DNA from: Escherichia coli
GTDB taxonomy: Bacteria; Pseudomonadota; Gammaproteobacteria; Enterobacterales; Enterobacteriaceae
Reading direction: 5' to 3' (one strand)
Assembly (NCBI RefSeq): GCF_024502345.1
Contig: NZ_JALDNN010000001.1
Length of the DNA: 64,000 nucleotides
Shown here: positions 215 to 47,383 of the stretch, piece after piece
Layout of the letters: every line of letters starts with the position of its first letter
Position numbering within the stretch: the first letter of the stretch is position 1
The notes under the pieces: model-generated
What the model was told of the DNA's origin: nothing
Database searches by the model: none
The model's input: the letters and a program-made list of their open reading frames with translations, nothing else
Program-made: the position numbers and the translations under genes

Positions 215-592
215 TTCACTGCTCCTTAGCCAATATGTATTGCCTGAATAGTAAAGTCTTTTTGGGGGTGTTAACCGCGACAAGGCTCATAGATTTACGT
301 ATCTGGAGAAATTCATATTTGACAAAAAACTCCGTGATTCCTGTCACGAAACGGTTGCTATTATCGCAGAAATAGCATTTTAGGTGTGGAAAATGTTCTC
401 AAAAGGTTAAATCTTGGTTTATATGGCGGGAATATTGTGAGTGGAATCGCATTCCTGAATGAAATTGATGCAAATTCAACCGGTAAAGTATCGATTCACC
501 ACGCTAACTTTTTTTGATTATTTTCTGAAAAAAGCAAAATACTACTGCCCGGATGCGATAATTAACCCACCTTTTGATTCTGGATAACCAAC

Positions 593-18426: not shown

Positions 18427-19177
18427 GTTTGAAGATATTCGCGGCGTCGCTTTTGATCTTGATGGTACGCTGGTCGACAGTGCTCCCGGTCTTGCTGCTG
18501 CGGTAGATATGGCGCTGTATGCGCTGGAGTTGCCCATCGCAGGTGAAGAACGCGTTATTACCTGGATTGGTAACGGCGCAGATGTTCTGATGGAGCGCGC
18601 ATTGACCTGGGCGCGTCAGGAACGTGCGACTCAGCGTAAAACAATGGGTAAACCGCCCGTTGATGACGACATTCCGGCAGAAGAACAGGTACGTATTCTG
18701 CGTAAACTGTTCGATCGCTACTATGGCGAGGTTGCCGAAGAGGGGACGTTTTTGTTCCCGCACGTTGCCGATACGTTGGGCGCGTTGCAGGCTAAAGGCC
18801 TGCCGCTAGGCCTGGTCACCAACAAACCGACGCCGTTCGTCGCGCCGCTGCTCGAAGCCTTAGATATTGCCAAATACTTTAGCGTGGTTATCGGCGGCGA
18901 TGATGTGAAAAACAAAAAACCGCATCCGGACCCGCTGTTACTGGTGGCTGAGCGGATGGGAATTGCCTCACAAGAGATGCTGTTTGTCGGCGACTCACGC
19001 AATGATATTCAGGCGGCAAAAGCGGCAGGTTGCCCATCAGTTGGCTTAACCTACGGATATAACTACGGCGAGGCTATCGATCTCAGCCAGCCTGATGTAA
19101 TTTATCAGTCTATAAATGACCTTCTGCCCGCATTAGGGCTTCCGCATAGCGAAAATCAGGAATCGAAAAATGACTAA
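18419..19177 (+). CDS. gph: Phosphoglycolate phosphatase (HAD family)
   Basis: 252-aa ORF with HAD motif I ([12 protein letters not shown]); 8-nt overlap with rpe. Confidence 0.94.
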
Positions 19178-46044: not shown

Positions 46045-46677
46045 TTAACGAGTGCCGTAAACGACGATGGTTTTACCGTGTGCGGAGATCAGGTTCTGAT
46101 CTTCAAGCATCTTCAGAATGCGTCCCACGGTTTCACGAGAACAGCCGACAATCTGACCGATTTCCTGACGGGTAATTTTGATTTGCATACCGTCCGGGTG
46201 AGTCATAGCGTCTGGTTGTTTTGCCAGATTCAGCAGAGTCTGTGCAATGCGGCCCGTCACGTCGAGGAACGCCAGGTTGCCCACTTTCTCTGAAGTGACT
46301 TGCAGACGACGCGCCATCTGTGCAGACAGACGCATCAGAATGTCCGGGTTTACCTGAATCAATTGGCGAAATTTTTTGTACGAAATTTCAGCCACTTCAC
46401 AGGCGGTTTTCGCACGTACCCATGCGCTACGTTCCTGGCCCTCTTCAAACAGGCCCAGTTCGCCAATAAAATCACCCTGATTCAGATAGGAGAGGATCAT
46501 TTCTTTACCCTCTTCGTCTTTGATCAGCACTGCCACAGAGCCTTTAACGATGTAGTACAGCGTTTCCGCTTTTTCACCCTGGTGAATAAGCGTGCTCTTG
46601 GATGGGTACTTATGAATGTGGCAATGAGACAAGAACCATTCGAGAGTCGGGTCTGTTTGCGGTTTGCCAAGCACCAT
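46045..46677 (-). CDS. crp: cAMP receptor protein (catabolite activator protein)
   Basis: 210-aa [80 protein letters not shown]...[17 protein letters not shown]. Confidence 0.98.
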
Positions 46678-46794
46678 GCGCGGTTATCCTCTGTTATAAG
46701 CTTTCTCCAGAGCCAGATAACGCCGCTGTCTCTGGATTGCCGAAATATGCTTCCCGCTACCTGGGAAGGGGCTATCAACTGTACTGCACGGTAA

Positions 46795-46810
46795 TGTGAC
46801 GTCCTTTGCA
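46795..46810 (-). promoter_or_regulatory. CRP-like site in the crp leader (autoregulatory site)
   Basis: TGTGACGTCCTTTGCA; reverse strand TGCAAaggacgTCACA resembles TGTGA-N6-TCACA; lies about 120 bp upstream of the crp ATG. Confidence 0.5.
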
Positions 46811-46978
46811 TACATGCAGTACATCAATGTATTACTGTAGCATCCTGACTGTTTTAGCATAGCTTTCGCTTTGTGTCTCCTGGTGTCTCGCTTCAGCATG
46901 ACCCAGGTCGCCTTCCGTTGCGCGATTTGGTTAGTACGCGTACTCTGTCAGGAAAATTGACGCAGTGGAGTAGCAAAA

Positions 46979-47383
46979 ATGCAAGCGCGAGTGAAGTGGG
47001 TCGAAGGGTTAACTTTTCTGGGCGAATCCGCCTCTGGTCACCAGATTTTAATGGACGGCAACTCAGGCGATAAAGCACCAAGTCCGATGGAAATGGTGTT
47101 GATGGCGGCGGGTGGTTGCAGTGCCATCGATGTGGTTTCGATCCTGCAAAAAGGGCGTCAGGATGTGGTCGATTGTGAAGTAAAATTGACCTCTGAACGC
47201 CGCGAAGAGGCACCACGCCTGTTTACGCACATTAATCTGCATTTTATCGTCACCGGTCGCGACCTGAAAGACGTAGCGGTTGCGCGTGCGGTTGATCTCT
47301 CTGCTGAGAAATATTGTTCAGTGGCGTTGATGCTGGAAAAAGCGGTGAATATTACTCACTCGTATGAAGTGGTTGCCGCGTGA
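46979..47383 (+). CDS. yhfA: OsmC-family protein YhfA
   Basis: 134-aa ORF MQARVKWVEGLTFLGESASGHQILMDGNSGDKAPSPMEMVLMAAGGCSAIDVVSILQK... Confidence 0.9.
   Translation: MQARVKWVEGLTFLGESASGHQILMDGNSGDKAPSPMEMVLMAAGGCSAIDVVSILQKGRQDVVDCEVKLTSERREEAPRLFTHINLHFIVTGRDLKDVAVARAVDLSAEKYCSVALMLEKAVNITHSYEVVAA

Follow-up and report, generated by a model that had tools for sequence, protein, structure and literature searches.

The sequence TGTGACGTCCTTTGCA, which occupies exactly positions 46795..46810 in the spacer between crp and yhfA, forms the core of CRP site I. Most likely (we put the probability at about 0.93), CRP bound at this site activates a divergent promoter that occludes the crp promoter P1, resulting in negative autoregulation of crp. 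In this study, we established which locus this is, its coordinates, how the site is positioned with respect to the published transcription starts, and the pattern of conservation; for CRP binding, the divergent start and the occlusion mechanism, we rely on the literature. All positions are those of the window, i.e., the whole 64-kb stretch of E. coli DNA that was analysed.

The crp/yhfA locus and its transcription starts

A 501-bp query spanning the gap between crp and yhfA had a match in 5425 of the 5426 complete genomes of E. coli (identity of at least 99% in 5391), and crp and yhfA (OsmC family) are what RefSeq annotates under the matches in E. coli genomes. The window is the reverse complement of the MG1655 sequence (window position = 3532797 - MG1655 position). 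Across crp, the spacer and yhfA, there are six base differences from MG1655, three in yhfA and three in crp. As all six are within the two coding sequences, the spacer (46678..46978, 301 bp) is base-for-base that of K-12 MG1655. This is the E. coli crp/yhfA control region, a long studied, textbook locus that is already annotated. The features of the region are as follows.

46045..46677, minus strand: crp coding sequence, 210 aa (list of open reading frames; RefSeq "cAMP-activated global transcriptional regulator CRP")
46979..47383, plus strand: yhfA coding sequence, OsmC family, 134 aa (list of open reading frames; RefSeq annotation)
46678..46844, minus strand: crp 5' untranslated leader, 167 nt (PMC3950509); the P1 start at 46844 is a G on the minus strand
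46847..46978, plus strand: divergent transcript, being the yhfA leader (PMC9600491)
46566..46844, plus strand: AsCRP, an RNase III-sensitive antisense RNA (RefSeq ncRNA ascrp b4841, MG1655 3485953..3486231)
46792..46813, no strand assigned: CRP site I (autoregulatory), 22-mer TAATGTGACGTCCTTTGCATAC, with its core at 46795..46810 and its centre at 46802.5
46851..46856, minus strand: candidate -10 element of crp P1, TAAAAC (-12..-7), placed by its distance to the published start
46833..46838, plus strand: candidate -10 element of the divergent CRP-activated promoter, TACTGT, placed using the sequence together with the published start of the divergent transcript
46894..46915, no strand assigned: candidate CRP site II (weak, activating), crp-sense GAAGGCGACCTGGGTCATGCTG, a weak match in our own weighted scan
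46882..46897, no strand assigned: Cra-like box, crp-sense GCTGAAGCGAGACACC, matching 12 of the 16 positions of GCTGAATCGATTCAGC

The crp leader of E. coli has been reported to be 167 nt long (PMC3950509), which puts the P1 start at 46844. The end of AsCRP, as given in RefSeq and in PMC9600491, maps to the same base. The centre of site I at 46802.5 is located 41.5 bp downstream of this start, and this matches the published position of site I for E. coli crp. We take +41.5 to be also the position listed in RegulonDB.

A second start, directed towards yhfA, has been described on the opposite strand, 3 nt upstream of that of crp (PMC9600491); for this start, the authors cite Okamoto and Freundlich 1986 and Hanamura and Aiba 1991, and their own reads are found there too. 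The centre of site I is 44.5 bp upstream of this divergent start (46847), the canonical spacing being 41.5 bp. If TACTGT served as the -10 element, the divergent start would be near 46845 and CRP would be centred at about -42.5, in a class-II-like arrangement. At 42.5 to 44.5 bp upstream of the divergent start, site I is at a position fitting known, class-II-like CRP action.

A scan for consensus promoters and terminators over 46400..47200 detected no promoter on either strand of the spacer, missing both P1 and the divergent promoter. Both promoters are poor matches to the consensus, as activator-dependent promoters are expected to be.

The antisense RNA AsCRP spans the whole crp leader, site I included, and the first 112 nt of the crp coding sequence. 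It is documented by Northern blot and RNA-seq and accumulates in an RNase III (rnc) mutant (PMC9600491).

The first-pass annotation had described this stretch as a divergent crp/yhfA (OsmC) control region, and the 301-bp spacer between the two RefSeq-annotated genes bears this out. It had also taken the region for the divergent promoter of yhfA, in agreement with the start described 3 nt from that of crp (PMC9600491), and had placed the CRP site where an autoregulatory site downstream of the crp start would be expected, which the 41.5 bp derived from the 167-nt leader confirm. Its suggestion of a divergent or antisense transcript was right twice, as both the RNA towards yhfA (PMC9600491) and AsCRP (RefSeq b4841) have been described.

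CRP site I and the autoregulation of crp

In the published account, which is the best supported one, CRP-cAMP would bind to site I, about 42 bp into the crp leader, and from there, at roughly -42 to -45 of the back-to-back promoter, it would act as a class-II-type activator towards yhfA by recruiting RNA polymerase to the divergent promoter. As the two starts are only 3 bp apart, polymerase at the divergent promoter would cover the crp P1 core, and crp transcription would consequently drop, i.e., crp would be negatively autoregulated. The weaker upstream site II (-60.5) would activate P1 at intermediate CRP-cAMP levels, thereby providing positive autoregulation, and Cra and Fis would be additional inputs at crp. 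The first-pass annotation is supported in its overall reading, but it named neither the accepted occlusion mechanism nor the activating CRP site II. As summarized in PMC9600491, crp is repressed by way of RNA polymerase being recruited to the divergent promoter. A systems study found that, under its conditions, autoregulation made a small contribution to crp promoter dynamics (PMC3564261), indicating that the physiological weight of the loop depends on the conditions.

This is the same locus as the published E. coli crp P1/divergent promoter module (site I at +41.5, site II at -60.5): the spacer is that of MG1655, with no difference, and the site position, the divergent start and the mechanism are as published. 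The arrangement shares with class II CRP promoters, such as galP1, a CRP site that overlaps the -35 region of a promoter with a weak -35 element. At galP1, CRP is centred near -41.5. In contrast to such promoters, the spacing for crp/yhfA is -44.5 when the literature start at 46847 is used, and the output usually discussed at crp is repression of the opposing promoter rather than expression of the activated gene.

A simple roadblock, in which CRP bound at +42 would itself stop RNA polymerase as a steric repressor, with the divergent promoter playing no role, is improbable. Site I does lie within the transcribed leader, and, according to the literature citing it, a roadblock was the first reading of crp autoregulation (Aiba 1983). 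However, later work, as it has been summarized, credits the repression to polymerase recruited to the divergent promoter, which overlaps P1. With CRP bound 42 bp downstream of the start, there is also no overlap with the P1 core promoter.

Even less probable is that the divergent RNA acts as the repressor, its 5' end pairing with the beginning of the crp mRNA so as to halt transcription, a model stated in the title of the 1986 paper by Okamoto and Freundlich; Hanamura and Aiba reportedly supplied the RNA in trans in 1991 and saw no inhibition. The divergent RNA is indeed made, with a start 3 nt from that of crp (PMC9600491), but the two RNAs would overlap by only about 3 nt, and the summary in the same paper ascribes the repression to polymerase recruitment rather than to the RNA. 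According to such later summaries, both the roadblock and the repressing-RNA models have been superseded, and we favour occlusion of P1 by polymerase at the CRP-activated divergent promoter.

The motif itself gives little statistical leverage. Site I reads TGTGA-CGTCCT-TTGCA, compared with TGTGA-N6-TCACA for the consensus, and carries 2 mismatches in 10 positions, the TGTGA half being perfect and the TTGCA half agreeing at 3 of 5. A CRP half-site pair had initially been read on the crp strand; the site is present at 46795..46810, but its TGTGA half actually reads on the plus (yhfA-sense) strand, the crp-sense reading being TGCAAAGGACGTCACA. The strand of this half is functionally meaningless, as a CRP site is two-fold symmetric. 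With up to 2 mismatches allowed, the consensus has 28 matches in the 64-kb window versus 25.0 +/- 4.8 in dinucleotide-preserving shuffles; about 0.12 matches are expected per 301-bp stretch, and the site I motif is therefore not significant by itself. For a positional window of 4 bp, the expectation falls to about 0.002 chance matches. What places site I above chance is: its position relative to independently mapped starts; its partial conservation; and the published binding and autoregulation. A literature search with the site sequence TGTGACGTCCTTTGCA gave no match. Elsewhere in the window, two sequences match the CRP consensus best, with one mismatch each: TGTGAGTGGAATCGCA at 436..451 and TGGGAATTGCCTCACA at 18957..18972.

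That site I is a functionless chance match is scarcely credible: the count in the window, the poor second half-site and the loss of TGTGA from 18 of 30 related species would be compatible with it, but two starts that were mapped independently are in accord with its position, the TGTGA offset is shared among 12 species (with a shift in one of them, see below), and binding of CRP-cAMP and autoregulation at crp are reported in published summaries, including PMC9600491, with a CRP-cAMP footprint at 46792..46813 already in the literature as so summarized.

Predicted hairpins in the crp leader

Downstream of site I, the crp leader may form two hairpins, which covariation supports, located just upstream of an invariant ribosome-binding stretch, TTATAACAGAGGATAA.

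46750..46768, minus strand: leader hairpin B, CTTCCC / GGGAAG (covariation count)
46707..46735, minus strand: leader hairpin C, CCAGAGACAG / CTGGCTCTGG (RNAalifold and pair counts)

Hairpin C ends 29 nt before the crp ATG. A third, upstream hairpin (helix A) is found in other species and is weak in E. coli itself. Helices A, B and C were drawn on an alignment of 29 Enterobacteriaceae species, in which 87.3% of the cells of the three helices form standard pairs, as compared with 26-53% when the partners are slid. Double-change cells numbered 35, versus 13.8 +/- 3.0 in shuffles, with none of 500 shuffles reaching 35, and compensatory change was seen in 11 of the 21 pairs of the three helices. 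RNAalifold alone retains helix C only. In this helix, 31 G-U cells versus 8 A-C cells favour the crp-sense RNA over AsCRP as the molecule that folds.

The structure is visible in the comparative test only, as the E. coli crp leader, folded as a single sequence, has an unremarkable z-score of -0.48. The main stem of this single-sequence fold is a perfect 9-bp inverted repeat, TGTACTGCA (46780..46788) and TGCAGTACA (46815..46823), which flanks site I in E. coli and is partly retained in Citrobacter; its centre at 46801.5 is 1 bp from that of the CRP site. At a permissive threshold over 46300..47300, Rfam provided no family for the hairpins, its sole match being a chance snoRNA inside the crp coding sequence. 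No description of leader hairpins in E. coli crp was found in the literature searched, and the related literature found concerns unrelated Yersinia leaders only.

On the comparative evidence, the hairpins at 46707..46768 might constitute an undescribed element for post-transcriptional control of crp in the Enterobacteriaceae, a suggestion that we consider tentative and rather doubtful at present. Such an element could be a docking structure for a protein or a small RNA, or a stability element. Hairpin B was considered as a CsrA site, but this was dropped as unsupported; a CsrA review contained no statement on crp.

In Pectobacterium, Serratia, Yersinia, Rahnella, Dickeya and Erwinia, a different conserved hairpin, ACAGGGAACTCTGAGCCCTGT, is present about 30-50 nt upstream of crp. 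It directly precedes the ribosome-binding stretch, at a place equivalent to that of helix C in the Enterobacteriaceae.

Conservation of site I and of the promoter block

A sample of 80 crp loci from different species was examined, Salmonella and Klebsiella pneumoniae not being among them, and spacers were compared for 30 Enterobacteriaceae species. The divergent yhfA-crp arrangement is found in most of the Enterobacterales sampled and in Aliivibrio (245 bp), with spacers of 245-426 bp, mostly about 280-380 bp. The TGTGA of site I is kept in 12 of the 30 Enterobacteriaceae species. In 11 of these, it is at an identical offset of 39 nt from the crp -10 block (three Escherichia, four Citrobacter, Kluyvera, Phytobacter, Pseudocitrobacter and one "Enterobacter sp."), and in the twelfth, a Cedecea, the offset is shifted by 8 nt.

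In the Enterobacter cloacae complex, Lelliottia and a Pluralibacter species, the TGTGA half is replaced by TTTGA or TCTGA, which predicts that negative autoregulation of crp would be weak or absent in those genera. At the loci of Enterobacter cloacae, E. asburiae, Lelliottia and Pluralibacter sp., the altered half is located about 130 nt upstream of crp, with its flanks and the promoter block retained. Site I was unrecognisable in the more distant genera of the Enterobacterales sampled.

In the Yersinia species sampled (Y. aldovae and Y. thracica), yhfA and crp are likewise divergent and the crp protein is more than 98% identical, but there is no TGTGA site at the equivalent place. For Y. pestis, which is not among the sampled loci, neither a CRP footprint nor autoregulation was observed at crp; the leader is 79 nt long and subject to Hfq-dependent control (PMC3950509). 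The absence of site I from distant genera is in line with the situation in Y. pestis and points to site I as a clade-specific layer.

Across all 30 species, there is hardly any variation between about 46850 and 46925, a stretch far better conserved than site I. It holds the crp -10 region, the Cra-like box and the weak candidate for CRP site II. The candidate -10 element TAAAAC sits inside the near-invariant block AAAGCTATGCTAAAACA of the 30 species. The site II candidate came from a weighted CRP scan with weights set by us rather than a curated matrix, which was used solely to locate candidates. It is centred at -60.5 relative to the crp start, and almost all of the 30 species conserve the block around it. 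Presumably, -60.5 is the position of site II given by RegulonDB and by Hanamura and Aiba in 1992. The existence of an activating CRP site II at crp is stated in a published summary.

Within the Cra-like box, GCTGAA.CGAGACA is invariant in the 30 species. Binding of Cra upstream of crp has been detected by ChIP-exo (PMC5888115), and, judging from the sequence, we infer that this binding would belong to the box at 46882..46897. Further upstream, at 46924..46933 (80-89 bp upstream of the crp start), there is a perfect 10-bp palindrome, GTACGCGTAC, within a conserved stretch whose crp-sense sequence is ACAGAGTACGCGTAC; other species retain the block but not the palindrome, a candidate for a Fis site or for an upstream promoter element.

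Since earlier work has already described the autoregulatory CRP site as well as the divergent promoter and the antisense RNA, no new biology emerges at this locus. Its value here is that of a positive control, in which a functional site was recognised that motif statistics alone would miss. The conserved leader hairpins are a small lead, and the comparison of site I across clades is modestly useful. The crp gene codes for the master regulator of catabolite repression, and the crp/yhfA spacer sets its level. Within this spacer, site I is limited to the Escherichia/Citrobacter/Kluyvera group and the block with the promoter, site II and the Cra-like box is near-invariant, a pattern which suggests that negative autoregulation of crp may be a recent, clade-specific layer.
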